Shown one piece after another: positions 5,767 to 53,874 of a stretch of DNA of 64,000 nucleotides. Both the position numbers and the translations under genes were made by a program. Every line of letters starts with the position of its first letter. Position 1 is the stretch's first letter. The DNA lies in IMG/VR virus record IMGVR_UViG_3300043406_000147. One strand, given 5' to 3'. The notes beneath the pieces are model-generated. The model did not search any database. It saw only the letters and a list, made by a program, of their open reading frames with translations, and was not told the origin of the DNA. This DNA comes from a virus (Duplodnaviria > Heunggongvirae > Uroviricota > Caudoviricetes).

Positions 5767-5966
5767 GGCGGAGGGTAAGTTAAATCGTTTGAAGAACCCG
5801 AGGGGGTAAGCCTTGATAGCTTATTCTCGTACTTGAAGAGGTGTGACTACTTTGACGCTGGTAGGATTGCGTCACCATCTGATAGTTGGGTTTGGTTGTT
5901 TTTGAATCGTTCTTCCAGAGCATCGTTTAACCCCTTGAACACTGACGTGTAGAAAAAGCAGGTACC

Positions 5967-16099: not shown

Positions 16100-16138
16100 T
16101 TTCTTTTTTTCACACCTTTGAAATGTTGGAGTAGAGCC

Positions 16139-17368
16139 ATGGGAATTTACGACACCACCACCGAAGCCGCACGTGGCGTGCTGGACGTTGCACGTGACAT
16201 CAACGCAGCGCTGGATGAAGCCGACAAATACACAGGCGGAAAAAGTCTGATTGACGTGTCGAAAAACGCACGTGTCGAGCCGCTGTTCATCGTGGACAGC
16301 GCGCTGCTTGCGTACGAACACATGCCTGATATTGCTCAAACGATGCAATCCATCTTTGCGGGCTACTACCTGCAAGCCGTGGAACACATCACCACAATCG
16401 GTGGGATCAAAGTCACTGACAAGCTGGCTCCTCTGAACCCGAATCGGAAGGTCGACATCGGCCTGATGAGCGAGAACGTGATGGTGCCGTATGCACAGAG
16501 CGCATGCGCCAGCGTGGATGAGTGGCGCCTGAAGGCCGACTCCTACACCTTTACGCTGCCGACCACGAAGAACCGTGTGAAGATCGGCAACGAATCGATG
16601 GTTCCGACCATGAGCACGGAAACGTTGCGCCTTGTGCGGGAACCCATCAAGTCCATCGGCACGGAAGCTGACGATGACAAGAAGGACAAGAACAGCAATT
16701 TCAAAGATGCTGGCAAAGTGATCGGCGAAGTGGCGGCTCTGTCGGTGGGCAAGCTGTACACAATCACGTTGAAAAACGACAAGCAGAGCGTGCCTGTGAC
16801 GGTGGCGATTCGCCTGATGGCCCGCACCATCCCGACCAGCTCACTCACGAGCATCTTCACGTTCAACAACCGTGAGGACATGGATTTCATGGAACGTGTC
16901 CACGGTTGGCGTTCTGGCCGGCTGGAGCTGATCAACGATCTGATCCTGTGCAACGACCTGGTGGATGCCCATCGGAAAAACCTGATCAATGACAAGACGG
17001 GACTCTACCAAGAAATTCTGTCGCGTCAAAACAACGGCCTGGCTGCTGGGCTGCTGGAGCGCAATCCTTCGTTGGCGGTGGCGAGCAACCTCTGTGTCAT
17101 CGACTCATCCACACTGGCGGCGATCGAGATCAAGATGGGTGGGGCGTTCGACAACTACAAGGTTCGTCGCGAGGTGTTCAACACCACCAACATGATGATC
17201 ATGGCTGTGGTGGATCGCGGCTACGATCGGGTGACGTTCTATCACCGCGGTATCGCCACCACCACCGAGATGTCCATCCGTGACATCAAGGTCTCCAACA
17301 AGGGCAATGGTCCGGATGTCACTGACATCCTGAAAGCATTCATGGGTGGGAAAGCCCCTGTTCTCTGA
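16139..17368 (+). CDS. hypothetical protein (possible capsid/virion protein)
   Basis: ATG at 16139 after a GGAG. 410 aa. Divergent from the minus-strand structural genes across a 39-nt promoter region. Confidence 0.5.
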   Translation: MGIYDTTTEAARGVLDVARDINAALDEADKYTGGKSLIDVSKNARVEPLFIVDSALLAYEHMPDIAQTMQSIFAGYYLQAVEHITTIGGIKVTDKLAPLNPNRKVDIGLMSENVMVPYAQSACASVDEWRLKADSYTFTLPTTKNRVKIGNESMVPTMSTETLRLVREPIKSIGTEADDDKKDKNSNFKDAGKVIGEVAALSVGKLYTITLKNDKQSVPVTVAIRLMARTIPTSSLTSIFTFNNREDMDFMERVHGWRSGRLELINDLILCNDLVDAHRKNLINDKTGLYQEILSRQNNGLAAGLLERNPSLAVASNLCVIDSSTLAAIEIKMGGAFDNYKVRREVFNTTNMMIMAVVDRGYDRVTFYHRGIATTTEMSIRDIKVSNKGNGPDVTDILKAFMGGKAPVL

Positions 17369-17408: not shown

Positions 17409-18299
17409 ATGTTCAGCAAATATCTCTCCCTGCTGCTGCCGAGCTTCGAGCGCTCGCAAGTGATCGCCAGCGCCGAAACCAGCCGGCAAGTCATTCTGGA
17501 GCAAACCCTCCCGTCGATTTCGGGGGCGGAGAAACTCTACGCTGGGAAGAAGCCGGCCAGCAAAGAAGGGCAAGCCCTCGACAAAGCCATCGCCGCGGCG
17601 GTGGGAAACAAGCCACTCTTCACCAACTTGGCGCGTGTTCTCAAGAAGTCCACGGACATTCTTGACTTCTGCATCAAGTACGGTGAAAAAGCTTTCGCCA
17701 ACACGGAAACCAATCGGGCTCTGACATACCCGAAAGTAGCAGTGATTCGCACTGTGGAAGCCAGCGAATACGTCAGCACGTATTGCCGGCGCATGCTGAA
17801 CTACTTCCTGGTGTTCGAAACCATCGCATCGGGTGGTACGACGGCTGCGCTGTCGTCCAGCGAAAAGCTCTGGGTGGAACAAAACCTCCCGGACTTCTGC
17901 ACGGCTCTGAAGTCTCTGGACATCGAAGTGGATGTCTTCGAGCGCATGCTCAAGGATCTCCCTGATGCCGTGGTAAGCGAGCTGGCGGACCGCTCCTTCT
18001 CGAACGTGTCGGGTGTGGGCAAAATCGACCCCATGAACATGCGCAACTTCAGCGCAAAGATCAATCCGTTCTACCTGATTCGGATGACCAAAGCGGCGTG
18101 GGACGCTGAGCGCTATGACTCCGTCAAGGAAGAGCGCAAAATGCTGCAGCTGCGAATGATGCAGTTGGAGCGTCAACGCGACGGCAAGCCCGATGCGAAG
18201 CTCGATGCACAAATCGAGTATCTCCAGAACCGCATCACGGCGCTGAATCAGAAGGCCGAGAAAATGGAGAAGGAATGGCTGAACGGGGACTCCAAATGA
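17409..18299 (+). CDS. hypothetical protein with a C-terminal coiled-coil
   Basis: A 296-aa ORF. The C-terminus (RKMLQLRMMQLERQRD...LQNRITALNQKAEKMEKEW) is heptad-like. Confidence 0.5.
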   Translation: MFSKYLSLLLPSFERSQVIASAETSRQVILEQTLPSISGAEKLYAGKKPASKEGQALDKAIAAAVGNKPLFTNLARVLKKSTDILDFCIKYGEKAFANTETNRALTYPKVAVIRTVEASEYVSTYCRRMLNYFLVFETIASGGTTAALSSSEKLWVEQNLPDFCTALKSLDIEVDVFERMLKDLPDAVVSELADRSFSNVSGVGKIDPMNMRNFSAKINPFYLIRMTKAAWDAERYDSVKEERKMLQLRMMQLERQRDGKPDAKLDAQIEYLQNRITALNQKAEKMEKEWLNGDSK

Positions 18300-20323: not shown

Positions 20324-20416
20324 GTCGGAATCTTTTGACCACCATGGCCTCAGGCACTTCAGGTGCTTGGGGCCGTTTTATGCTGTTTATCCACAGAACA
20401 CAGGAGTACCGCTAAA

Positions 20417-22342
20417 ATGCGATTCACAATAGGTACGGCTCGACGCGTTGGGATGGAAGACGACGATGTCGATACAGACAAAAAAATAGAACCGGCACCC
20501 AAAGAGCCGGAGAAGCCCAAAGAAGAGCCTGAGAAAAAAGAAACGCCTCCGGAGGAGCCGAAACCAGAGGAAGATCCTCCTGCTGAAGACCCGCCACCAG
20601 AAGCGAATGAAGATCCTCCTGCCGACACAGCGGAATCACCTGCTGACGATGGTGTGTCAGGCGACGCGCAAACCACACCTGAAACTCCGCCTGCTGAACC
20701 TGTCGTGCAAATCAAAGGGCAGCTGAATGTGGATAAAGCAGTTGAGGACATCGAAAACAAAGCGGCCGCTGATGAAGTGGCCAAGTCTGAACAGAACGCC
20801 TTAGGAAAAATCGTGAGCAACATTGATCAAAGTGCAAACATTGCCAACGAAGACGCTCTCCATCAGCGGATGGTGGACGCTCTTCCGTATGAGAATCCGA
20901 CCAGTGTGGCTGCAGATGCTGCGCGCATCACCCTTGAATTCGAAGGAATTCAAGATGAGCTTGACAACGCAAGTGAAACAATCGAAACAGTGTCAGATGT
21001 GGCGAGTACTCTCTCGCAAGCCAGTCCAAGTGAAATGAATAATGCGTCGGGGCAAGCGCTTTGTGCTGCCCTCGAACACTTCCGCACCAGCTTAGGCGTT
21101 CGGAAAACAAACTTTGGGATGGAAGGCTATCTCACGGGTCGCTACACCTTGAAAGCCAAACACTCGATGGCAATGGAAGGCATCAAGGAGTTCATGAAAG
21201 ACCTCTGGGAGTTCATTATCGAAACCACCAAGAAAATCGGTGAATGGATCAAGGGGTTCTTCAAGTGGGTGTGGGGTGTGCTGACCAAGCAACGCCGAGA
21301 TGCGCAGCGGGCACAAGAGGCTTGTGTTGCGGCAAAAAAGAAGGAGCAAGACGCCCCTTCTGAAGCGGTGGTCTTGGCAGATCAAACAGAAACCGAACTG
21401 GCTGTTTTGGAGAAAGGCAGCAAGGCTGAGTTTGACAAAGCCATCGAAAAGATCAAAGCAAGCAACAATGTCACAGCGCTGATCCTGAAGGAAATGAAGC
21501 AGCAACCTTCCCAGCTGTACATGAAAGAATTCAGCTTCCTGCATAAGGACGGCGTGCCTCTGACCGCACAAGAAATCCAAGACCTTTCTGTCAAGGGCTT
21601 CAGTTTGATTGAAAACGAGATGGTGCACCATCTCGGTGAGATGAACATTTTGCAAAAAGCAGTGGATGACTTTTTACAGGTGGCCGATCGCACTTCTGAT
21701 GAGTTGTATCGGGCAAGCCTCGCATTGCCTGGGGTTGTTCGTCCAACAGCTGTCGGTCAATATGAGACCTATGAGCTGTATGACGATGGCACTGCGCAAT
21801 GCTTGATTCGCCATTTGCCTGGCAATCACGCTGTATATCGACTGTGCTTGCAGGACACAACTCAAGAAGCATTTAAAGACAATATTCGCACGCTGAAGAA
21901 ATATGTGTTGCCGCTTGAAAAGAGCGCCGACCCTGACGCAGCTTTGGAATATACTTCGGTTGACAGGGCGTATGTTTTCTTGGATTACTTCAAGAAAGCG
22001 GACGCGAAGATCGAACAGGGTATCGGCGAACTCCGAGACAAGATCGAGGCAGCCCTGGATTATCTTCACGACAAAGCTACCGAGATGAAGAAAAACTTCG
22101 GTAAAGAAGAGCAGCTCCCAGTTGAGGATGGGCGCGAATATCCGCTGTCAGTGCGGCGTGTGCTCGACTTTTATCGAAATCAAATGAGTTCATTCACGAT
22201 CACATTTTCAAACTACTACATCAAACTCAAGGAACAACTGATCAGCTACATGACGCAATGTGCGCAGCGGCGGTATCAGCTTATTCATGCGAGTGAGGAA
22301 GTGTTGAAAGAAATTGCGAAGATGAACCCTTCGCTTGTGTGA
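20417..22342 (+). CDS. paralogue family member 1 (Pro/Glu/Lys-rich N-terminal low-complexity region)
   Basis: ATG at 20417 after an AGGAG. Conserved core AMEGIKEFMKDLWEFIIETTKKIGEWIKGFFKWVWG. Confidence 0.6.
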   Translation: MRFTIGTARRVGMEDDDVDTDKKIEPAPKEPEKPKEEPEKKETPPEEPKPEEDPPAEDPPPEANEDPPADTAESPADDGVSGDAQTTPETPPAEPVVQIKGQLNVDKAVEDIENKAAADEVAKSEQNALGKIVSNIDQSANIANEDALHQRMVDALPYENPTSVAADAARITLEFEGIQDELDNASETIETVSDVASTLSQASPSEMNNASGQALCAALEHFRTSLGVRKTNFGMEGYLTGRYTLKAKHSMAMEGIKEFMKDLWEFIIETTKKIGEWIKGFFKWVWGVLTKQRRDAQRAQEACVAAKKKEQDAPSEAVVLADQTETELAVLEKGSKAEFDKAIEKIKASNNVTALILKEMKQQPSQLYMKEFSFLHKDGVPLTAQEIQDLSVKGFSLIENEMVHHLGEMNILQKAVDDFLQVADRTSDELYRASLALPGVVRPTAVGQYETYELYDDGTAQCLIRHLPGNHAVYRLCLQDTTQEAFKDNIRTLKKYVLPLEKSADPDAALEYTSVDRAYVFLDYFKKADAKIEQGIGELRDKIEAALDYLHDKATEMKKNFGKEEQLPVEDGREYPLSVRRVLDFYRNQMSSFTITFSNYYIKLKEQLISYMTQCAQRRYQLIHASEEVLKEIAKMNPSLV

Positions 22343-22371: not shown

Positions 22372-23778
22372 ATGAAACGAAATCTGACCCTGGCCACCAT
22401 CAATCTCAACGTCGGTCTTCTGAGTGAGCAAGAAGACAGCGCCGCCATGGCGGCTGCCCTTGCGGCGTATGAGCAAACCGAACCGACTGCGGCAACTGGT
22501 CTGGTTGAAGCCGGCACCGAGCTGGAAAACGTGACCCAAGCCGTCGAAGATGGGGGCGAAGCGGCACAAGTCGTCGATGCTGCACTGGCTCCCCTGGAAG
22601 AATCCCAAGAAGAAATCAACACCCCGGCGTTGGAGGCATTGCGGATCTGCCTGAAGCACATGTCCGGCCAACTCGGTATTCCGACGAGTCGTCGGATGGG
22701 CATGGAGTCGGACGCCACCCTGACCAATCGGCAAATTGCCATGGAAGGGATCAAGGAGTTCGCTTCCAAGATCTGGGAGGCGATCAAAGCAGCTTTCGCA
22801 AAGATCAGCGAATGGATCAAGGGGTTCTTCACATGGCTCTTCCGAATGGGTGACCGGACAGAGAAGGCGCTGGCTGTTGAAGAAAAGCGTGCGGAATCGC
22901 TGAGCAAGGTTGACATTTCCGAAAAGGCTGCGGAGATGGCAAAACAGCACAAAGAAGAACTACATGCCCTTTCTGGGCAGTCCAGTGCTGGCTCGCACCC
23001 GTACCTGTATGTCCCGAATGGCGGTGAGTCGGTTGAAGGGGGTAACTTCGTCAAAGCGGTGGAGAACACGTTCTCTTATGTGAGCAAGAGCATCGAAGCC
23101 AAGTTCCTGTCGAAGACGAGCTGCAACAACCTTGCAGCTCTACTGCTCCAAGACATGAAGCACTTCGCTGATGAAAAGATCGAGGCGCTGAAGTTCACCC
23201 AAGAAGTGGCTGAAAAGTATTACTTCATGGCCGAAGAAAAAGTCGACGGTCAGAAATATCGCTCTGCACAACCTCTGCTGGGTGATTACCAAGTGCTGGA
23301 GCAGCGCCCCGACAGCCCGACAGCCCGGTACCATATCGGGTTCGAGCGCGCAGGCGGCGCAACCGATCAAATCATCAAAACTCTCACCCCCGCTGAATCG
23401 AAACAGCTGGCAAAAATGGCAGGCAAATTCATCGACAGGAGTTCGCTTTCTGACGTTGAGAAGTTTGTGACTTCGAAAATCGAGGAGCTTTCGAAAGAGC
23501 TGAATACGGCAAGCCTTGCTGCCACTAAGAGCAGCCTCAAGGCGGCTGCTGGAGGCGGTAGTTTTGGAGACAGTCCGACGCGTGACGTGTTCAACAACAT
23601 CAAGCGTGGCTTCGATCTCTTCCAGGTCATTTTCTGCGGATTCCTGCCCAAGGTGCTTTCGTACAAAGTCACACTGTGCGAAAATATCAAACACCATGTG
23701 AAAGTGTCGAACGACTTTGCTGAATCTGTGAGCAAATTCAATCAGCAAATGGAGAATGGCGAGGCGTTCGTGCTGTAA
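22372..23778 (+). CDS. paralogue family member 2
   Basis: The conserved ALEALRICLKHMSGQLGIP motif precedes the AMEGIKEFASKIWEAIKAAFAKISEWIKGFFTWLF core. Confidence 0.6.
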   Translation: MKRNLTLATINLNVGLLSEQEDSAAMAAALAAYEQTEPTAATGLVEAGTELENVTQAVEDGGEAAQVVDAALAPLEESQEEINTPALEALRICLKHMSGQLGIPTSRRMGMESDATLTNRQIAMEGIKEFASKIWEAIKAAFAKISEWIKGFFTWLFRMGDRTEKALAVEEKRAESLSKVDISEKAAEMAKQHKEELHALSGQSSAGSHPYLYVPNGGESVEGGNFVKAVENTFSYVSKSIEAKFLSKTSCNNLAALLLQDMKHFADEKIEALKFTQEVAEKYYFMAEEKVDGQKYRSAQPLLGDYQVLEQRPDSPTARYHIGFERAGGATDQIIKTLTPAESKQLAKMAGKFIDRSSLSDVEKFVTSKIEELSKELNTASLAATKSSLKAAAGGGSFGDSPTRDVFNNIKRGFDLFQVIFCGFLPKVLSYKVTLCENIKHHVKVSNDFAESVSKFNQQMENGEAFVL

Positions 23779-23887
23779 AGCCGAGGGCTTGTCGATCACA
23801 TACTGTGACAATTGTCGTCACCCCACTATTGATCATGGTGGGGTTTCACCCGAATTTTCATTTCACTTTCCACGTGGAGCTACAAAC

Positions 23888-25255
23888 ATGGCACGAGTTA
23901 CCCTGGGCCGCATCGGTCTCGAAAACGAAGAAGTCACTCCGGAAGTCACGGACGAAACGCTGAACGCGATGGCCGAAGCTCCGGATCAGGAAATCGCCGA
24001 CGCGACCCAGATCGCCGCCGAGCTGGACGCCATCGACGGCGCCATCGAAGAAGGCGTGGACACCGCCGACACACTGGGCGAAGTCGCCGCTCCGCTGCAA
24101 GAAGCCGTCGACTCCGGTGAAGGCATCCCGGCTCCCGCCGCGGAATCGCTGCGCATCCTGGTCAGCCACATGACCTCGCGCATCGGCGTGCCCGTGCGGA
24201 CCAAGACGTTCGCGATGGAATCCTTCAAGGGCAAGCAGACGCGCCTGCAAGCCACCCAGATCGCTCTGGAAGGCATCAAGGAAACCGCACAACGCATCTG
24301 GGCCCAGATCGTCGAAGCCTTCAACAAGGCCATCGACTGGATCAAGTCGTTCTTCGCCAAGCTGTTCGACGGCGCCGTCAAGCTGAAGGCCGCTGGCGAG
24401 AAGCTGAGCAAGGCCGCTGGCGAGAAGGCCAGTGCCACGATGGAAAAGGACACCATCGAGTCGGCCGGTTTCGCTGAAAAGCTGCAAGTCGGTGGCGCTG
24501 CTCCGGCTGGTGACGCGTTCGCTGCGCAGTTCAAGAGCTTCGTCGACAGCTACAAGACCTACATCGGCGCGACCGAGGCCGCTTCGAACCGCACCTTCAT
24601 GGACAACGTGAAGCAGCTGTTCGCCAACGCGACCGACGGCGCGAAGGCCAAGGAAAAGCTGAAGGTTCTGGCGCACAAGATCACCTTCGGCAAGAAGGGT
24701 CAGTCGGCACAGACCCCGCCCGAAGGCATGGAAGTCCAAGTTCTGGACCTGACGAAGATCGGCGACAAGCAGATCAGTGGCTTCGCCTTCACGGCGGCAG
24801 CGACGGACGAGCAAGTGCTGGCCAACATCGGTCGTGTCAAGGTCTGGGTGGAAGACGTGGCTGGTCGCAAGGCCGTGGATGGCAAGAACGTCAAGGCCCT
24901 GACGGCGTCGGCTGCCAAGGAAGTCGCCGACAGCGTGGTCACCCTGGCCGCAGCACTGATCGACGGCAAGAAGGCTGCTGCTGCTCTGGAAACCGAGCAG
25001 AAGAACCTGCAGAAGCTGGCTTCTGACATGTCCAAGAAGGCACCTTCGATGGCTGGTCCCGCACCGGAAGGCGGTCAAACGTCGTCTGAAGCCGCACCGA
25101 GTGTGCTGGCCGCTGCTGTGCGTTCGTCGATCAACCTGACCACGACGGCTCTGTCGCAGACCCGCAGCTACGGCCTGACCACCGGCAACGCCGCGCTGGC
25201 CTACGTCTCGGCGTCGCTCAGCCTGCACAAGGCCGCTGCCGCTGCTGCCAAGTAA
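23888..25255 (+). CDS. paralogue family member 3 (GC-rich, Ala-rich)
   Basis: N-terminus MARVTLGRIGLENEE. Core ALEGIKETAQRIWAQIVEAFNKAIDWIKSFFAKLFD. Markedly higher GC than its neighbours. Confidence 0.6.
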   Translation: MARVTLGRIGLENEEVTPEVTDETLNAMAEAPDQEIADATQIAAELDAIDGAIEEGVDTADTLGEVAAPLQEAVDSGEGIPAPAAESLRILVSHMTSRIGVPVRTKTFAMESFKGKQTRLQATQIALEGIKETAQRIWAQIVEAFNKAIDWIKSFFAKLFDGAVKLKAAGEKLSKAAGEKASATMEKDTIESAGFAEKLQVGGAAPAGDAFAAQFKSFVDSYKTYIGATEAASNRTFMDNVKQLFANATDGAKAKEKLKVLAHKITFGKKGQSAQTPPEGMEVQVLDLTKIGDKQISGFAFTAAATDEQVLANIGRVKVWVEDVAGRKAVDGKNVKALTASAAKEVADSVVTLAAALIDGKKAAAALETEQKNLQKLASDMSKKAPSMAGPAPEGGQTSSEAAPSVLAAAVRSSINLTTTALSQTRSYGLTTGNAALAYVSASLSLHKAAAAAAK

Positions 25256-25351
25256 GCAGCTCAACTAGGCGAACAACGTCTTTCGCCTAACCGCGTAATG
25301 GAGGGGTTCGCCCCTCCATTATGTCTGCCTCATCTTCACTGGGAAGAAAAT

Positions 25352-26698
25352 ATGAAAATCAATCTGGGCCGCATCGGTCTCGAAAACGAAGGAGTCGCTC
25401 CGCTGGCTGATGACTCCACAGTCCAAGCGTTTGACGAGTTCAATCAGCAAGACGCGCAGTGCATGAACGAAATCGCTGTCGAGCTGGACCTCCTCGACGG
25501 CGCCATCGAAGAAGGCGAAGAAACCGCAGCAGTGGTGGAAGAAGCAGCTGCCCCGTTGCAAGAAGCCGTCGACTCCGGCGAAGGCATCCCGGCTCCCGCC
25601 GCGGAAGCTATTCGGATCTGCCTGAAGTACCTCAGTGGGCGTACGCAGGTGCCGATGCACATGACCGCTGTTGGGGTGGAGTCCTTCAAGGTCAAGCAAA
25701 CCCGCCTGAACGCTACCAAGATTGCCATGGAAGGCATGAAGGAGTGGGCGAAGAAAATCTGGGACGCCATCGTGGCGGCTTTTGATTCCGCTATCGAGTG
25801 GGTCAAGGGCTTCTTCTCGAAGCTGTTCGATGCAGCTGTTCGCATGAAGAAGGAAGCCGAGGCCCTCAAGCAAAAGAGCGAATCGCTGGCTGGGAAAACT
25901 CCCAAGGCCGGGGCGAAGCTTGAGAAAAGCTCGCTGACGACCAAGCTGATGTTCGGCGGGAAGATCCCCGATGGCAAGACGTTCGCCAGCTTCTACGAGA
26001 AGACGATCGCCACTTACATCGACGTGGCCAAGAAGAGCGTCGGTGAGGACACCGTCCTGAAGATGCTCGAAGGCACCGCGACCATTCTCGCTTCGGCGGA
26101 TGAGTCGGTTGCGAAGCTGGAGCCGCTCGTCAAGGAGGTCACGACGATTCCGTTCGCTGGCAACGAGACGCGCATCCCCGGTGAAACACCGGCCGACGGT
26201 ATGACTCTGAAAGCCAGTGCAACACTGGTGGGCGATGTCAATATCTTCCTGGAGACGTTCAAGGAAGACGCCTCCCTGGATCAGCGCACGGACAACTTCG
26301 GTCGCATGAAGATCTGGGTGGGCCCGGCCATCACACAAAAAGAACTGACGGCGTCCGACATCACGCCGATGAAGCCTGACGACTGCAAGAAGGTTTGCGT
26401 CGCCACGGCGGAGCTGGCTGACAGCATGCTGGAGATCAAAGCCAACGTGACCAAACTGGAAGCTGTACAGAAGAAGATCGCTGGTGAAGCCAAGCGTCTG
26501 AGCAACGCAAAAGACGACGCTGGTGGTGATGACGGCAGCAAGAAGTACCATGCTGCTGCGTCCCGACTGGCACGGGCAATGCTCAGCATGAGCACCAACG
26601 GTCTGAGCGGCATCCGCACGTACGGCGTGAACACGGGCAATGCGTCCCTTTCGTTCGTGAAGCAGTCTCTGGCTGCGCTGGAAAAAGAAGGCGCGTAA
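25352..26698 (+). CDS. paralogue family member 4
   Basis: N-terminus MKINLGRIGLENEG. Core AMEGMKEWAKKIWDAIVAAFDSAIEWVKGFFSKLFD. Shares near-identical DNA tracts with member 3. Confidence 0.6.
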   Translation: MKINLGRIGLENEGVAPLADDSTVQAFDEFNQQDAQCMNEIAVELDLLDGAIEEGEETAAVVEEAAAPLQEAVDSGEGIPAPAAEAIRICLKYLSGRTQVPMHMTAVGVESFKVKQTRLNATKIAMEGMKEWAKKIWDAIVAAFDSAIEWVKGFFSKLFDAAVRMKKEAEALKQKSESLAGKTPKAGAKLEKSSLTTKLMFGGKIPDGKTFASFYEKTIATYIDVAKKSVGEDTVLKMLEGTATILASADESVAKLEPLVKEVTTIPFAGNETRIPGETPADGMTLKASATLVGDVNIFLETFKEDASLDQRTDNFGRMKIWVGPAITQKELTASDITPMKPDDCKKVCVATAELADSMLEIKANVTKLEAVQKKIAGEAKRLSNAKDDAGGDDGSKKYHAAASRLARAMLSMSTNGLSGIRTYGVNTGNASLSFVKQSLAALEKEGA

Positions 26699-26796
26699 AG
26701 CGCTGAGCATGTGAGTGCAGAGAGGGGAGTCATCCCCTCTCTTATGCCGTTTAAATCGTTTGATCAGATAAATACCGCTTCTTTCGGAGAATACAC

Positions 26797-28350
26797 ATGC
26801 CCACGGTAATGCTGCCTACACCCAATACCCATTGGACAATTGACCGGCCTGTCGTGGTCGGTGTCCTGAAAGATTTGATTCAAATCACAAGAATCAGTCA
26901 CACCACTCCGATCAGCTTCTACAGTGAAGAAGCTAAAAGCTATCAACAAGGCTCTACGTTAGCCAGTGAAGGCATTGAAGAAAACCTTTGGCCTCACGAT
27001 GATCGGCTGTTTGTGGAGGTCAAGGAAGAGATTGACCTGGACCGAATCTATTCGAACAGAGTGGCTCAGAACGAGCACCCTCACATTTTCTCTGACAGTG
27101 CGCTCGGCATCTCCATCAAGCCTGTTTACTTCTATACCAAGCTGTCTATTTCAGTCAAGTACCGCGCATCAGATCGAAACAAAGCAGAAATGTGGCGTAA
27201 CGAAATGGCTGTTCGGGCGGCAATGCTTCGGGACATCAACTTGCACGAGTTGGAGTTTGGGTTTGAAATACCTGCGGCGTTTTTGTTCATCATTGAGGAG
27301 CTGCATCGGCTTCGCGAGAATGTGGCTGGGTATGGTCAGGATCTGAACGATTATTTTACGTCGAACTTGTCAACCAATACTTCACTGACCACGAATTTGA
27401 ACGCGAGCACTTTTGCATGGTGTACCAAGGAAAGGCAAATTGGTGTGCAGGGGTGGTTTGAGTTTGATAAGGTTCCCGACAAGGCAGAGCGGGAAAACGA
27501 TCATGATGCTTACACAAGCAGTTTCAGCTATGTGCTGCACTACCAAAAGCCGATTGCGTCTAACATGACGTATCCGTTAATGGTGCATCAACAAGTCTTG
27601 GACGCTAAATTCAGGCCAGAAGAAAAAGCTTACAGCCTCTATGACCAACCTGCCTACTATAGTCAGAGTGGGAGAGCGGCAGCGTACTTCAGCAGTGACG
27701 CCCGTGTTAGGAGAATTGGCAGTAAGGAGGGCGTGAGCATTCCAGCTTACGATGAATTCAAACCGAGAACAGTGCCGAGTTCATCTGTCAAGATTTTTAA
27801 CGTGATGGTCTGCGTGACCCCTGAAGATAAACGCACGCTGATTAACTTGGGTGAGTTAGGGGATTTCGTTCTTGACTCTGATATCCTTGAGTTCATCAAA
27901 ACGTCCGAACACTCATTCATGACGGGAGATTACCAGTCCATCTTACAGCTGAATCTGTATTCGAACTCAGAGCAACTGGACAAAGGGTGCATCACTTTAT
28001 CGAACGATCTGACACTCAGCGCGACGCGTGATTTGGATCTTCGGAAAGTGTACCATGTGCGCATGAGCGTCATCACCAATATCAGCTACTTGCCTGTGCA
28101 AGCACTCAAGCGAATCCAGCAGAACCCCGTGGTGGGGATGAAACTGGTGAACGCAATCAATGCTTCAATCACCGGGTTCAATGGATCAAGGGCAGACATT
28201 CGAAAACAAGTTCTGTCAGTAGAAGACGTTTTGTTGTTAACCAGTAAGCGACTGAGCCCGAGTTACATGCGTGGACATTACCCGCACTTCATCGCGGAAA
28301 TGTTTGCTGGGACGACAAAGCAAAAAGAAGTGTTGATTAAAAACACTTGA
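26797..28350 (+). CDS. hypothetical protein (517 aa)
   Basis: GGAGA RBS. Unrelated to the flanking paralogue family. Confidence 0.5.
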   Translation: MPTVMLPTPNTHWTIDRPVVVGVLKDLIQITRISHTTPISFYSEEAKSYQQGSTLASEGIEENLWPHDDRLFVEVKEEIDLDRIYSNRVAQNEHPHIFSDSALGISIKPVYFYTKLSISVKYRASDRNKAEMWRNEMAVRAAMLRDINLHELEFGFEIPAAFLFIIEELHRLRENVAGYGQDLNDYFTSNLSTNTSLTTNLNASTFAWCTKERQIGVQGWFEFDKVPDKAERENDHDAYTSSFSYVLHYQKPIASNMTYPLMVHQQVLDAKFRPEEKAYSLYDQPAYYSQSGRAAAYFSSDARVRRIGSKEGVSIPAYDEFKPRTVPSSSVKIFNVMVCVTPEDKRTLINLGELGDFVLDSDILEFIKTSEHSFMTGDYQSILQLNLYSNSEQLDKGCITLSNDLTLSATRDLDLRKVYHVRMSVITNISYLPVQALKRIQQNPVVGMKLVNAINASITGFNGSRADIRKQVLSVEDVLLLTSKRLSPSYMRGHYPHFIAEMFAGTTKQKEVLIKNT

Positions 28351-28367
28351 TCAACACCAACGAAACA

Positions 28368-29933
28368 ATGTCACTTGCGAGACTGACCATGAGCTTATCT
28401 GACAAACAAATCAAAGCAATTGCCCTGAACGCTGAAATGTGCGCGCAGGATGCGCAATTTCAAGGGCTTGGGCTTGTACTTGAATCCGCACAAGAAGTGC
28501 TTGAACAAGCCGACTCGGATGAGCGGGCTATTCAAGACGCAAAAAGCGCGATCGAGGCATCCGATCAGGAATTCTCTTCGCCTGCGTTAGAAGCACTGCG
28601 GATTTGTATCAAGCATTTTGAGAAGATCAACGGACTCTCGCCTTCGAAGCGGCCTGGCGTGGAGTCTTCTAATGCAAAATCAAATCGGGCGATTGCGCTG
28701 GAGAGCGTGAAAACATTCTTGATCACACTGTGGGAAAATGTCAAGCGAGCAATCTCCTACGTCTGGGGTAAAATTCGCGAATTCTTCAAGCTACTGCTTG
28801 GTAAGAAAGAAAAGAATCTTGGTGACGAAACGCTTCGCTTAACTGGGATTCGCAAAGACTATGATCGCTTCTTGGCCACTGAGAAGGAGTTCTTAGAAAA
28901 AACAATCGGAGTAGAGCTGATTCAATCTGAGCTGCATAAATCCGGGGATAATACCCCGGAAGTGCAAAGAAGTATAGCAGCAATGATTGGGCGGGTCGAT
29001 CCAGGTCATGCCGCTGAGAGATTGAAAGAAGTCCAAGCACTCTTCAAGGAAATCAGCGAAGTCAAGCAAACGATCGAAGCCAGGGAATTTCGACTCTTAA
29101 GCGCCGATGCGGGTTGTTTAGATGAGCAGATAGAAGCTGCAAACGACACATTTCACGGTATTTTTGACGTGATTGATTTCTTGTACGACCAGCACATTCG
29201 TCAACGTGTTATTCGTGCAACGTTTCAGCGAGACGCAATGGAGCGGACAACAGATCACGGGCCTGCAAAGAAAACGGATGCGGAGTTAATTGAATACTAC
29301 GCTGACGATTTCAAATATGGGCAAACACTTACAAACCACATCGAAGATCTGAATCGTGAAAAACTATGTGGAACAACTTTGGTCATGACGGCGGTGGGTG
29401 CTTCTATTGAGCGAGATGGCATCAAGTCAATTCACGACTTAGGCACTGCTCAAAAATACAGCATTCAGATCGAAGAGAAAAAGAAACCGATCAGCGCTGA
29501 TCAAAAATACGCCTCCGGAAAAGCGGACTTCTACCAAGTCGCGCATAAGGCAGGCGATGTGGCTAAGGAATACACCAATGCTATTGCTGACATCACAGAA
29601 AAAGCAATGTCGCAGGATGCCGGGCTAAGCCAAGACATCATCGCAGATGGTCTGGATGATACATCTCGTCTGATTTCAAAATTTGATGGCGAGAACCCCA
29701 AAGATCCTTTTCATGCGACGTTCTCCGCGCGAGCACGTGTCATCATTGACATGAACAGAGCTGCTCCAAATTTGATGTTTGCTGCCACGAACCTGTTGCA
29801 AAAGGGGACAATTTACCATGGTGAACTGCTGTGGTTGATTGAGAAAAACTACTTCATCTACAAAACCATGGTCTATGCGATGCGGGTTTTGAAAGAAGTT
29901 GACTTGATGACGAAGGGTGCTTTGTCGAAGTAA
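28368..29933 (+). CDS. paralogue family member 5
   Basis: SSPALEALRICIKHFEKINGLSPSKRPGVES...ALESVKTFLITLWENVKRAISYVWGKIREFF. The start is uncertain (ATG 28368 or 28389, or TTG 28347). Confidence 0.5.
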   Translation: MSLARLTMSLSDKQIKAIALNAEMCAQDAQFQGLGLVLESAQEVLEQADSDERAIQDAKSAIEASDQEFSSPALEALRICIKHFEKINGLSPSKRPGVESSNAKSNRAIALESVKTFLITLWENVKRAISYVWGKIREFFKLLLGKKEKNLGDETLRLTGIRKDYDRFLATEKEFLEKTIGVELIQSELHKSGDNTPEVQRSIAAMIGRVDPGHAAERLKEVQALFKEISEVKQTIEAREFRLLSADAGCLDEQIEAANDTFHGIFDVIDFLYDQHIRQRVIRATFQRDAMERTTDHGPAKKTDAELIEYYADDFKYGQTLTNHIEDLNREKLCGTTLVMTAVGASIERDGIKSIHDLGTAQKYSIQIEEKKKPISADQKYASGKADFYQVAHKAGDVAKEYTNAIADITEKAMSQDAGLSQDIIADGLDDTSRLISKFDGENPKDPFHATFSARARVIIDMNRAAPNLMFAATNLLQKGTIYHGELLWLIEKNYFIYKTMVYAMRVLKEVDLMTKGALSK

Positions 29934-50270: not shown

Positions 50271-51908
50271 ATGCAAGCTCCCGCAGACACCATCATCACC
50301 TCCGCCCCCACCACCGTCAAGTGGACCAGTCTCGGCGATTATCCCATCTTCCTGGAACGCGTGAAGGCGCGGTTCCTGAAGAACACCGACAACGGCAAGC
50401 GGCCGGTCTTCGCCACCACCACCACCGGCTTGTGGGAGATGTACCTCGACGGGATCGCTGACCCCGTGGAGCGCCAACACAAGAACTGCCGCACCTGCAA
50501 GAAGTTCATCGAAGCCTACGGCACCCTCGCCGTGGTCGATGAGGACGGCATCCTGCGCTCGCTGATGTGGGATGAAGAAGACGCACCCGAATCGCTGCGC
50601 CTGTCCATCGCCAACATGGCCAAGACGGTCCGCCGGGCCGAAATCAAGACGGCGTACTTCTCGCCGCTGGCAACCTGGGGGACGGCGGTCACCGGAGACT
50701 GGTCGCATCTTTCGGTCGACGTGCCCCCGATGATGCGCTTTCGCCACCCGGTGATGGAAGCACACCAGCTCTCGGCCGAAAAGATCCAGGAGTTCAACTC
50801 GGTCAAGCTCGCCCTCAGCGAGTACACCGTGGACCACCTGACCACGGCGGTTCAGCTGCTGAACGCCGAAGCGCTCTACCGCACCGAAAAGGTGTTGGGT
50901 CCGGCGCAGTGGCTGCTCGAACGAAAGCAAGAGCAAGCCAGCACGGCGGGGACTCAGCGGCAAGACAACCTGCTCTGGAAAGCGATCGCCACCGCGCCGT
51001 CCGGCTTCTGCCACCCGCGCTCCAGCATGATCGCCACGCTGCTGGATGACATCGCCGCCGGAAAAGACTTCGAAGCAGTCAAGCGCTCCTTCGACGTCAA
51101 GATGAACCCGACGGTCTACATGCGTCCGCAAACGGGCCCGTCGGCCGGTGAAATCGCGGCTGCCGAAAAGCTGTTCGAGCAGCTCTCGTCTGGCGATTCC
51201 CTGCGCCGCCGTTTCGCACGACTGGATGAAGTCAAGGCCATCTGGAAGCCGGCACCGAAGAAGGAAGAAAAAGCAACGGGTGACGGCCTGTTCTCGCATC
51301 TGAAGCTCAAGACGGACGCATCGTCCAGCGAAAAGATCGCCCTGCAACTCCCGCCGAAGCTGATGACGTGGGAGAAGTTTGCTTCCACGGTGCTCCCCAC
51401 TGCGGAACGCATTCAACTGCACACACCGATCTACGGCGCATACGCGCCCCTGGTCACCGCCGCGAACATGGATGCGCCTCCGATCATCCAGTGGGACACC
51501 GAAGAAAACCGCAACCCGGTCTCCTGGTATTTCCGCTCCAACGGTTGTTCTGCTCGCACGTTTGGGCTGGCCTCTGATGTGTTCGTGGAAGTGGAAGCTG
51601 TCACGATGCAACCGTCCATGTGGAATGGCGGCTTCGAGCACCAGGGTGCCGGCGTGATGTTCATCCTGCAGGGTGCGCATGAAACTCAAGAAGCGGGCGC
51701 TGCGCTGTTCCCCGAAATCCTGAAAACGGAGTATCGGGGTATTCGTTCTGTGCTGGAGGCATACTCCAACCATGCGAAAATTGAAGGCATCAACGAACCC
51801 CATGCTGCCGGCGTCATGCTCAGCAAGAACCGCGCAGGCTGGGACCAGATTCTGAAGGTCTGGTCGGATGGCAAGGCCAGCACGTACAAGCTGGATCGCT
51901 GGGAATAA
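50271..51908 (+). CDS. GC-rich hypothetical protein (545 aa; moron-like)
   Basis: AGAGG RBS and a strongly elevated GC3. Long mirror ORFs lie on the opposite strand. Confidence 0.5.
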   Translation: MQAPADTIITSAPTTVKWTSLGDYPIFLERVKARFLKNTDNGKRPVFATTTTGLWEMYLDGIADPVERQHKNCRTCKKFIEAYGTLAVVDEDGILRSLMWDEEDAPESLRLSIANMAKTVRRAEIKTAYFSPLATWGTAVTGDWSHLSVDVPPMMRFRHPVMEAHQLSAEKIQEFNSVKLALSEYTVDHLTTAVQLLNAEALYRTEKVLGPAQWLLERKQEQASTAGTQRQDNLLWKAIATAPSGFCHPRSSMIATLLDDIAAGKDFEAVKRSFDVKMNPTVYMRPQTGPSAGEIAAAEKLFEQLSSGDSLRRRFARLDEVKAIWKPAPKKEEKATGDGLFSHLKLKTDASSSEKIALQLPPKLMTWEKFASTVLPTAERIQLHTPIYGAYAPLVTAANMDAPPIIQWDTEENRNPVSWYFRSNGCSARTFGLASDVFVEVEAVTMQPSMWNGGFEHQGAGVMFILQGAHETQEAGAALFPEILKTEYRGIRSVLEAYSNHAKIEGINEPHAAGVMLSKNRAGWDQILKVWSDGKASTYKLDRWE

Positions 51909-53286: not shown

Positions 53287-53874
53287 GTGAAGAAAACCTT
53301 TTGGAAGTTTGTGGCGGCTTTGTTCGTCGGTCTCGTGAGCTTCGCCGCTCATGCTCAGTACAGTGCGCGCGTGACGCTGGATGGAAACTGGTACCTCCAG
53401 GCCGGGCAAGTGGAGAACTTCACCCCAGGCGTCAACATCGTCGGCATGCGCTACTCCACCGGCCTGCATGAGGACGGCGGTGCCGTGTTCGAGCAGTACA
53501 TCGCAGGCGACACGCGGGACGGCTGGCTCACGCCCCAGAACACGCACTACAGTGTGTCGGACTGGAGCACCTCCCTGGCGGCGGGTCAGACCTTCACCTT
53601 CTCGGGCCTGGATCTGGACATCATCACCAACATCGCAACCAACGAGGTGGACAGCCAAAATCTCGACACGGTGGGCACATCACTGCGGACGGCGTACATC
53701 GAACTCACGTTCGCTGACGGCTACTACAAGGTACTGCATCTGAACCCGACGCCGTGGAGTGTCACGCAGGTCCTGGAGTTCGGCGTCGCCCCGATTCCGG
53801 AGCCCGAATCCTACGCCATGATGCTGGCAGGGCTGGGTGTTCTCGGCGCCGTTCGGCGTAAGGCCAAGGGCTGA
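53287..53874 (+). CDS. secreted PEP-CTERM domain protein
   Basis: N-terminal signal peptide MKKTFWKFVAALFVGLVSFAAHAQ. C-terminal PIPEPESYAMMLAGLGVLGAVRRKAKG matches PEP + TM helix + basic tail. GTG start with an AGAGGA RBS. GC-rich. Confidence 0.55.
   Translation: MKKTFWKFVAALFVGLVSFAAHAQYSARVTLDGNWYLQAGQVENFTPGVNIVGMRYSTGLHEDGGAVFEQYIAGDTRDGWLTPQNTHYSVSDWSTSLAAGQTFTFSGLDLDIITNIATNEVDSQNLDTVGTSLRTAYIELTFADGYYKVLHLNPTPWSVTQVLEFGVAPIPEPESYAMMLAGLGVLGAVRRKAKG

Follow-up and report, generated by a model that had tools for sequence, protein, structure and literature searches.

Why do two neighbouring genes of a phage, diverged over most of their length, share short stretches of nearly identical DNA, and why does the first of them have the highest G + C content of its array? 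The question is raised by the third and fourth members (m3 and m4) of an array of five internal head protein genes (m1–m5) in a 64,000-nt stretch of viral DNA (Caudoviricetes; IMG/VR record IMGVR_UViG_3300043406_000147), hereafter called the window. An earlier reading of this stretch (the original prediction) had proposed recent recombination or gene conversion within the array, together with acquisition of m3 from a relative of higher G + C content. Here we report a computational analysis of the locus, according to which m3 and m4 are old tandem paralogues that have probably undergone recurrent gene conversion of their 5' parts, the G + C shift being most likely a matter of composition and of expression-linked codon preference.

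Of all phage proteins, the internal head (ejection) proteins enter the cell first, and some of those of phage T4 disarm host defences. The diversification of such protein families is poorly documented for nucleus-forming jumbo phages. The phage of the window is an uncultured, phiKZ-like jumbo phage known solely from metagenomes. At the level of near-identical DNA, none of 50,697 phage records searched matches the array, and phiKZ-like jumbo phages of Burkholderia, Ralstonia, Xanthomonas and Pseudomonas show 33–39% identity to its large virion proteins. The genes m3 (23888–25255; 455 amino acids) and m4 (25352–26698; 448 amino acids), which like all features below lie on the plus strand unless stated otherwise, match the full profile (positions 2–387 of 387) of PF12699, "phiKZ-like phage internal head proteins", with 121.4 and 136.7 bits (cut-off 27), and both start at the codon called in a close relative. 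As judged from family membership, their products would be packaged in the capsid and ejected with the DNA.

Identical tracts and synonymous sites

The two nearly identical tracts of the original prediction, one at the 5' ends and one of about 50 nt with a single T/C difference, are present exactly as described, and a local alignment recovered a third that had been missed. Tract 1 (23903–23930 in m3, 25364–25391 in m4; codons 6–14, LGRIGLENE) is identical at 28 of 28 positions, or at 37 of 39 if extended to 23941. Tract 2, the additional one (24019–24056 and 25480–25517; ELD..DGAIEEG), agrees at 35 of 38 positions, and tract 3 (24096–24145 and 25557–25606; LQEAVDSGEGIPAPAAE) at 49 of 50, with its T/C mismatch at 24118. 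All three have a common offset of 1461 nt. The 28-mer of tract 1, CTGGGCCGCATCGGTCTCGAAAACGAAG, occurs in the 64 kb at its two listed positions only, and the tract sequences have no further occurrence there beyond their m3 and m4 copies. The tracts lie in a 5' domain (23903–24420 in m3) that is colinear with 25364–25881 in m4 without insertions or deletions (337 of 518 positions identical, 65%) and comprises the predicted propeptide (to ALE-128) and the conserved core. In the stretches that separate the tracts, identity is 42–56%.

Synonymous sites were examined in a codon-by-codon alignment of m3 and m4, using only positions with the same amino acid and defining as islands codons 6–22, 45–56 and 71–86. 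In the islands, the same codon is used at 37 of the 38 identical residues (12/12 in tract 1, 10/10 in tract 2, 15/16 in tract 3), where 19.0 are expected from codon usage (post hoc P = 2.5e-11). The matched codons include some that are rare in m3 (CTC, 4%, and GGT in tract 1; TCC, 7%, and GCG, 17%, in tract 3). Outside the islands the counts are those of chance: 6/15 between islands, 22/40 in the rest of the conserved N-domain and 32/76 in the C-terminal body. A window-free run test gave the same picture at lower significance (three longest same-codon runs summing to 32; P = 1.1e-3 under a codon-usage null). The number of synonymous substitutions per synonymous site (dS; Nei–Gojobori) between m3 and m4 is 0.11 in the islands, 1.45 in the rest of the propeptide, 2.28 in codons 129–175 and 1.34 beyond codon 175. 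The remainder of each gene has thus diverged, as predicted, to saturation (dS 1.3–2.3).

Two paralogous genes of phage SPN3US, gp53 and gp54, served as a control. They too have islands of identical peptide (MANFVKSKLARESVE and VAQESIRKRWA), but the same codon is used there at only 8 of 14 residues, compared with 62 of 110 (56%) in the rest of the gene. Because these islands are synonymously diverged, protein constraint accounts for the location of the islands, not for the DNA identity in m3 and m4. These contrasts form part of the support for recurrent short-patch gene conversion between m3 and m4.

Relatives and probable concerted evolution

The array was recovered in the close relatives L001 and L002 (95–100% DNA identity), in the distant, low-GC relative L003 (core proteins about 50% identical), and in L004, L006, L007 and L008. 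Among cultured phages it is found in KTN4 (phiKZ-like), RSF1 and SPN3US. A search for related loci with alignments of m3 and a reference gene found one lineage in IMG/VR and none in the JGI metagenome contigs.

Since L003 has orthologues of both m3 (55% identical to the window gene) and m4 (49%), the duplication is older than the split between the window and L003 lineages. Saturated synonymous sites also indicate an old duplication, as does the presence of a separate orthologue for either C-terminal body in a phage whose core proteins are only about 50% identical. Over the C-terminal body, identity is 0.56–0.58 between orthologues of the window and L003 and 0.24–0.26 between paralogues. In the first 96 alignment columns the identity is 0.58 between m3 and m4 of the window, versus 0.44 between m3 and its L003 orthologue and 0.30 between m4 and its own. 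In the next 80 columns (core) the window paralogues are 0.53 identical, versus 0.28 for those of L003. Such a reversal over the 5' part of about 525 nt (in m3, 23903–24420) is what concerted evolution leaves behind, here in the lineage of the window. The shared peptides are closer to L003 m3 than to L003 m4, which suggests that copying went mostly from m3 into m4.

Comparison with L001 adds smaller differences. There, tract 1 extends to about 23945, and position 23930 is C in both paralogues, where both paralogues of the window have G. At the clustered sites 24088, 24091 and 24095, L001 m4 equals L001 m3; at 24102–3, 24112 and 24121, m3 of the window equals its m4 and L001 m3 differs. These clusters would fit small recent patches. 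The tracts are also present, with slightly different borders, in the independent metagenome assemblies of L001 and L002.

Comparable 5' tracts occur elsewhere. In L003, m3 and m4 share 44 of 50 nt over the ribosome-binding site and the first 12 codons, with the same codon at 7 of 8 positions versus 1.6 expected (P = 1.9e-5) despite opposite codon usage; the rest of the two genes agrees at the level of chance. In L007, three tandem internal head protein paralogues (starts at 5865, 7295 and 8761) begin with the same 26 nt, ATGGCACGATTGAATATTGCAATGCT, two of them sharing 35 nt, and their upstream regions differ. The island-confined synonymous identity, the regional conflict between paralogy and orthology, the polymorphic borders and the 5' tracts of other lineages bear out the gene conversion that had been proposed for the array. 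The process and the gene family are both known, m3 and m4 being ordinary members of PF12699, and the locus adds a well-documented new case.

Several points weigh against this reading. The islands were delimited after the data had been viewed, and the window-free test gives just P ~1e-3. The case for an older, long conversion leans partly on L003 m4, which is under AT pressure and may form a long branch. With just two close genomes and no outgroup, the substitutions between the window and L001 are unpolarised, and the doubly shared site 23930 is by itself not significant (about 0.2–0.3 expected by chance). Near-identity of 5' ends is seen in four lineages (window, L003, L007 and, over 23 nt, SPN3US), so that tract 1 may owe part of its identity to nucleotide-level selection around the start codon.

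In the L002 copy of m4 (L002:6118-7388), 76 nt of the propeptide region are missing after ...CAGTGCATGAA; the reading frame is thereby shifted, and the called protein begins 61 residues downstream. Either the copy is truncated or decaying, or the assembly is in error here.

Predicted propeptide and proposed mechanism

The m3 protein contains the S/A/G-x-E motifs GLE-12, AIE-54, SGE-78, AAE-86, AME-111 and ALE-128, and each tract carries at least one of them (tract 1, GLE-12; tract 2, AIE-54; tract 3, SGE-78 and AAE-86). In an alignment with SPN3US gp53 and gp54, the mapped maturation sites AQE-125 and AQE-124 fall opposite ALE-128 of m3 and AME-127 of m4, which places all three tracts within the predicted N-terminal propeptide. 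The propeptide boundaries and the cleavage of m3 and m4 are likewise predictions from the sequence. In the SPN3US virion only the major capsid protein is more abundant than gp53 and gp54, whose cleavage by the prohead protease takes place at AQE-125/AQE-95 and AQE-124, respectively (PMC5694885).

These SPN3US proteins (family A) and the phiKZ inner-body proteins gp93, gp94, gp95, gp162 and gp163 belong to the same family (PF12699) and occupy the same slot after a gp91-like gene. Like m3 and m4, gp53 and gp54 are tandem paralogues of about 45 kDa with N-terminal A-x-E motifs and with islands of identical residues at the N terminus and further in. They differ in that their islands are synonymously diverged, those of m3 and m4 being identical in DNA, and in copy number (two members in SPN3US, five in the window). 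For the window proteins, cleavage and packaging are predicted.

Ectopic homologous recombination between direct copies 1461 nt apart would copy patches from gene to gene. An older and longer event may have made the 5' part of m4 resemble m3, and recent patches of 28–50 nt would then have produced the near-identical tracts, whose dS of about 0.1 is comparable in magnitude to the divergence that separates the window from L001. The patches fall on the most conserved peptide motifs, where residual nucleotide homology could seed recombination. Homogenisation at these motifs might be harmless or even useful, because both proteins would need to be recognised by the same assembly and protease partners.

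The duplicated bacterial genes tufA and tufB are an example of RecA-type gene conversion and concerted evolution. The likeness lies in non-reciprocal copying between direct repeats that leaves segments identical and flanks diverged. Unlike in the tufA/tufB type, conversion between m3 and m4 is patchy, concerns saturated paralogues, is limited to their propeptide-coding 5' part and takes place in a virus. The literature contains a general remark on rampant duplication and recombination in giant phages (PMC5694885); in the literature searched, we found no description of concerted evolution limited to the propeptide-coding part of PF12699 genes. The arrangement suggests a division of labour, in which the part that is cleaved off is kept uniform by copying between paralogues and the mature bodies diverge and are exchanged between strains.

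Base composition and the origin of m3

The G + C content at third codon positions (GC3) is 0.532 in m1, 0.627 in m2, 0.789 in m3, 0.735 in m4 and 0.495 in m5. The values are non-uniform and m3 is the richest, as had been claimed, but m4 is nearly as rich, so that the contrast drawn between the two genes does not stand as it was put. Overall, m3 is the GC-richest gene of the array (0.629 versus about 0.51; m4, 0.581). The GC3 enrichment is even along m3 and m4 and not limited to the tracts. GC-biased gene conversion was considered as its cause and rejected (GC3 of converted 5' part versus rest, 0.806 versus 0.779 in m3 and 0.703 versus 0.755 in m4).

The G + C contents at first and second codon positions (GC1 and GC2) of m3 are each raised by about 0.10. 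In every lineage, including those without a GC3 shift, the m3-type orthologue contains 14–19% alanine (19% in m3), versus 5–10% in its neighbours, and half of the GC excess of m3 is therefore due to an alanine-rich composition common to all orthologues. The GC3 excess of the m3-type gene is 0.20 in the window, 0.24 in L008 and 0.11 in RSF1. With a z-score of 2.5 among the genes of the window, the GC3 of m3 is not outside the resident range, in which other genes reach 0.73–0.81. For five amino acids m3 uses a single codon throughout (AAG, ATC, TTC, TAC and AAC, 100% each), CTG accounts for 94% and GAA for 79%, glycine is encoded by GGC and GGT only, with no GGG or GGA, and GCC and GCT are favoured over GCG. 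The pattern is one of translational optimality, not of GC richness in general.

In the complete genome of RSF1 (host Ralstonia solanacearum; median GC3 0.588), GC3 ranks the genes by expected expression. The m3-type internal head protein gene (ORF180; 0.825) stands beside that of the major head protein (0.842) at the top, followed by PhuZ (0.793), ORF183 (0.792), tail sheath (0.790) and nuclear shell protein (0.762), and the terminase (0.604) and DNA polymerase (0.595) genes are close to the median. ORF180 is also the closest cultured homologue of m3, with the same slot, an alanine-rich product, the top GC3 of its neighbourhood and codons of the optimal type. It differs in being only about 30% identical to m3, over the N-terminal 40%, and in that no m4 partner with shared tracts was identified in RSF1. 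Two further virion genes of the window, 16118–17368 (GC3 0.73) and 17409–18299 (0.75), are likewise raised; their RSF1 orthologues are ORF183 and ORF182.

The simplest and most likely reading is that the GC3 of m3 and m4 reflects an expression-linked bias towards the preferred codons of a GC-rich host, both the high expression of the two genes and the high-GC host being presumed. The GC shift would thus be separate from the conversion and have two parts: the Ala/Gly-rich composition of the subfamily would raise GC1 and GC2, and host-optimal, G- or C-ending codons in abundant virion proteins would raise GC3. Three points qualify this reading. That GC3 follows expression is taken over from RSF1, since the major capsid gene of the phage lies outside the window. 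The array genes of phiKZ and KTN4 are without any GC3 enrichment. Finally, some other GC3-rich genes of the window look accessory or host-derived (a PEP-CTERM protein and phrog_1735), which means that GC3 heterogeneity in the window has more than one cause.

The competing explanation, which made up the second half of the original prediction, is that m3 was imported laterally from a higher-GC relative and that its GC richness is the signature of the donor. Besides being the GC-richest gene of the array, m3 has GC1, GC2 and GC3 that together resemble those of a gene from a genome of about 63% GC, it is bracketed by hairpins as a unit of its own, and its C-terminal half has clearly been swapped between strains. 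The m3 orthologue of L003, an outlier in GC3 by about 20 standard deviations, is an instance of such a gene residing in a genome of foreign GC, and the identity of 55% between m3 of the window and that of L003 exceeds the 40% or so that would be expected. Against this, none of the seven related lineages examined lacks an m3 orthologue, which each of them carries in the same syntenic position, and the duplication that produced m3 and m4 predates the split from L003. The raised GC3 is shared by m4 and by the other two virion genes, whose RSF1 orthologues rank alike, and the codons are of the optimal type. Raised GC1 and GC2 are a trait of the subfamily itself, found also in lineages without the GC3 shift, and no donor-like sequence was found among the 5.8 billion proteins searched. 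We therefore regard import of m3 as unlikely. A GC3-rich gene in these phages does not by itself speak for a foreign origin, because GC3 ranks genes by expression.

Both m3 and m4 are overlain by full-length antisense open reading frames (ORFs; 23858–25264, minus strand, 468 amino acids, and 25319–26710, minus strand, 463 amino acids), which are not taken for genes. Their frames run in codon register with the sense frames and stay open only because both genes lack TTA, CTA and TCA codons, a by-product of the codon bias.

Other explanations of the tracts

Identity of the tracts could also be maintained, with no copying, by selection at the nucleotide level, for instance because both mRNAs or genes carry the same operator of translation, structured RNA element or site for protein binding. 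The near-identical 5' ends in the window, L003, L007 and SPN3US would suit such a function, as would the inclusion of the ribosome-binding site in the stretch shared within L003. Yet the sequences and positions of the tracts differ between lineages. In the window, identity begins only at codon 6, the ribosome-binding regions of m3 and m4 being unrelated, and tracts 2 and 3 lie 130–260 nt inside the genes. L001 tolerates changes inside the tracts (GAA to GCC, GAC to GAT). An Rfam scan of 23600–25500 gave no family match, and the tract sequences are found nowhere else in the 64 kb. Taken as the whole explanation, selection of this kind seems improbable, more so than the import of m3.

Chance combined with protein constraint, by which conserved peptides written in strongly biased codons would happen to coincide in DNA, has in its favour the extreme codon bias of m3 and an expected same-codon rate that is already about 0.5. 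It fails to account for the almost complete codon agreement in the islands, rare codons included, next to a mere chance rate outside them, and the SPN3US control has peptide islands without DNA identity; we consider it very improbable. A sequencing or assembly artefact, such as a collapsed or duplicated repeat, can practically be dismissed, the tracts (28–50 nt) being shorter than sequencing reads, m3 and m4 both being intact ORFs under purifying selection, and the same tracts recurring with small differences in two assemblies from other samples, so that the conversion reading survives the test that the original prediction had set for it.

Exchange between strains

Between the window and L001, the C-terminal block of m3 (24500–25200) is only 76–89% identical and contains a 30-nt indel, and its flanks are 96–100% identical. 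In this block dS is 0.56 and the number of nonsynonymous substitutions per nonsynonymous site (dN) is 0.17, compared with a dS of 0.08 in the N-terminal half. Since dS and dN are both raised, the block points to replacement of an allele between strains, not to positive selection alone. Similar diverged blocks are found in m1 (21600–22100), m2 (22400–22600) and m5 (29300–29900); all are sharply bounded, with 57–89% identity in a background of 95–100%. Alleles of the internal head protein bodies are subject to exchange between strains, and the description of the array as an actively evolving locus holds. Both m4 (dN/dS 0.06 in the comparison of the window with L001) and m3 (about 0.3) are under purifying selection. 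Copy number varies as well: L003 is without m5 and L004 without an m4 orthologue.

The reading based on expression meets an exception in L003 (ENA ERZ28615219, MUNK22-1 scaffold_1091). This contig has 36% GC, and twelve genes neighbouring m3 have a GC3 of 0.21–0.30 (about 0.25). The m3 orthologue (L003:8979-10355) has a GC content of 0.628 and a GC3 of 0.797 (z ~20), with a codon usage like that of m3 in the window, and its GC1 is raised by 0.23, far above the rise in other lineages. The L003 orthologues of genes that are GC3-rich in RSF1 and the window are barely raised (0.26–0.30), and expression-linked bias therefore fails as an explanation for L003 m3. The best reading is that it is likely an allele replacement from a GC-rich relative. 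A search for the donor of the GC-rich L003 allele found nothing closer than the window lineage (52–56% identity). The identity of 0.55 between m3 of the window and of L003, versus about 0.40 expected from the ratio of m3 to a reference gene in other genome pairs, goes together with saturated synonymous sites, and the pattern for m4 is the same. A long run of shared codons between the two m3 genes was dropped as a lead, there being no matching stretch of high DNA identity.

The GC-rich stretch of L003 m3 starts right past the 12 codons that it has in common with L003 m4, and this boundary marks either the point of crossover or a patch converted later. As the cause of the outlier, a chimeric assembly is improbable, because about four template switches at very short identities would be needed and a second contig carries the same proteins. 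If the L003 case holds, a structural gene has been exchanged across a 27-point GC gap, which bears on which phages share a host. The L003 outlier and a 22-nt box upstream of m3, described below, are the two items most worth further attention.

It is possible, if rather doubtful, that the 5' propeptide patches, the 22-nt box and the flanking hairpins together act as recombination handles, by which bodies are swapped between paralogues and between co-infecting jumbo phages of very different base composition. L003 would then be a case caught in the act, and the replacement at 24500–25200 between the window and L001 its within-lineage version. If true, this would be the phiKZ-type counterpart of the shuffling of internal proteins (IPs) behind a capsid-targeting sequence (CTS) in T4, diversifying the proteins that are injected first into the host. 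At the T4 IP locus, diverse bodies stand behind a conserved capsid-targeting sequence (PMC3012670), and short conserved promoter/stem-loop motifs (PeSL) have been proposed to mediate shuffling in T4-like phages (PMC4122927). Common to both systems are packaged and ejected proteins with a conserved N-terminal part and variable bodies, and short conserved sequences at gene starts or stem-loops as proposed points of exchange. The differences are that the T4 IPs belong to an unrelated protein family, that m3 and m4 are true paralogues over their full length, and that the exchange in the window is between paralogues of one genome. Moreover, PeSL is a dispersed repeat, whereas the 22-nt box of the window is single-copy and thus lacks repetition of the PeSL type.

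Intergenic elements around m3

The 22-nt box ATACTGTGACAATTGTCGTCAC (23800–23821), which contains the 10-bp palindrome GACAATTGTC, is conserved upstream of m3 in relatives. It is single-copy in the 64 kb even with three mismatches allowed, identical in L001:9913-9934, L002:4596-4617 and L003:8906-8927, and conserved at 20 of 22 positions in L004 (about 69 nt upstream of 6001). It was absent from L006, L007, L008 and RSF1. The box is followed by a hairpin, CCCCAC...GTGGGG (23821–23843), with a compensatory change in L001 (CCCCGC...GCGGGG), and then by GTTTCAC. The hairpin, the GTTTCAC motif or both follow the box wherever it occurs, GTTTCAC being conserved in L003 and L004. Our guess is that the box might be a gene-specific promoter or operator. 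Exact matches to a 19-nt core of the box in three unrelated public contigs lie inside coding sequence and were set aside as chance. The ribosome-binding site of m3, GGAG, lies 8 nt upstream of the gene.

Between m3 and m4 there are two strong hairpins (25268–25287 and 25296–25321; folding z-score −6.15 for 25268–25321) followed by TTATGT, an arrangement that may be terminator-like. L003 has an equivalent GC-rich hairpin and TTATGT after m3 and just upstream of m4 (L003:10378-10415, corresponding to 25296–25330 of the window). We take the TTATGT upstream of m4 to be a candidate late promoter of the phiKZ TATG type.

Array layout and further observations

The head module spans 18.9–31.5 kb of the window and contains all five PF12699 genes. 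The array occupies the slot after a gp91-like gene and before a head–tail joining gene, an order kept in L001–L004, L006–L008, KTN4, RSF1 and SPN3US. PHROG families annotated as internal head protein likewise match array members. The three genes other than m3 and m4 score 43–54 bits, above the gathering cut-off of 27. The first, m1 (20417–22342; Pfam phiKZ_IP, 54 bits), was delimited from the ORF list and the L001 orthologue. Its ORF opens at 20363, the likely start is the MRFTIG... codon at 20417, and the gene call of the L001 orthologue corresponds to a start at 20453. It is followed by m2 (22372–23778; 44.6 bits; GC3 0.63). Downstream of m4 the array is interrupted by a conserved virion gene that is not an internal head protein (26797–28350; phrog_3289), which served as the reference gene for orthology. 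The last member, m5 (28368–29933; Pfam match; GC3 0.50), is the one absent from L003, and its 3' end (29300–29900) is diverged from L001.

Two short repeats were noted in the array. The exact 18-nt direct repeat AAGGCCGCTGGCGAGAAG inside m3, which encodes KAAGEK, occurs at 24386–24403 and 24410–24427, with 24 nt between the starts of the copies. The genes m1 and m2 share an exact 22-nt stretch, GAATGGATCAAGGGGTTCTTCA, at the EWIKGFF motif (21242–21263 and 22810–22831). This stretch may be a further conversion patch; a match of this length has a chance of about 1% for a single motif and is not significant given the number of motifs and paralogue pairs.

Outside the head module, two genes stand out by their GC3. 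The ORF at 50271–51908 (545 amino acids; phrog_1735; GC3 0.78) was considered as the nuclear shell protein and rejected; it encodes a widely scattered phage protein with homologues of 34–44% identity in unrelated phages of Rhizobium, Brevibacillus, Bacillus (SP-15), Ralstonia and Stenotrophomonas. The ORF at 53287–53874 (195 amino acids) has the highest GC3 of the window (0.81) and a C-terminal PEP-CTERM motif (Pfam, 32 bits; cut-off 20.7). PEP-CTERM is a bacterial exosortase signal, and the gene is probably host-derived and a hint on the host.

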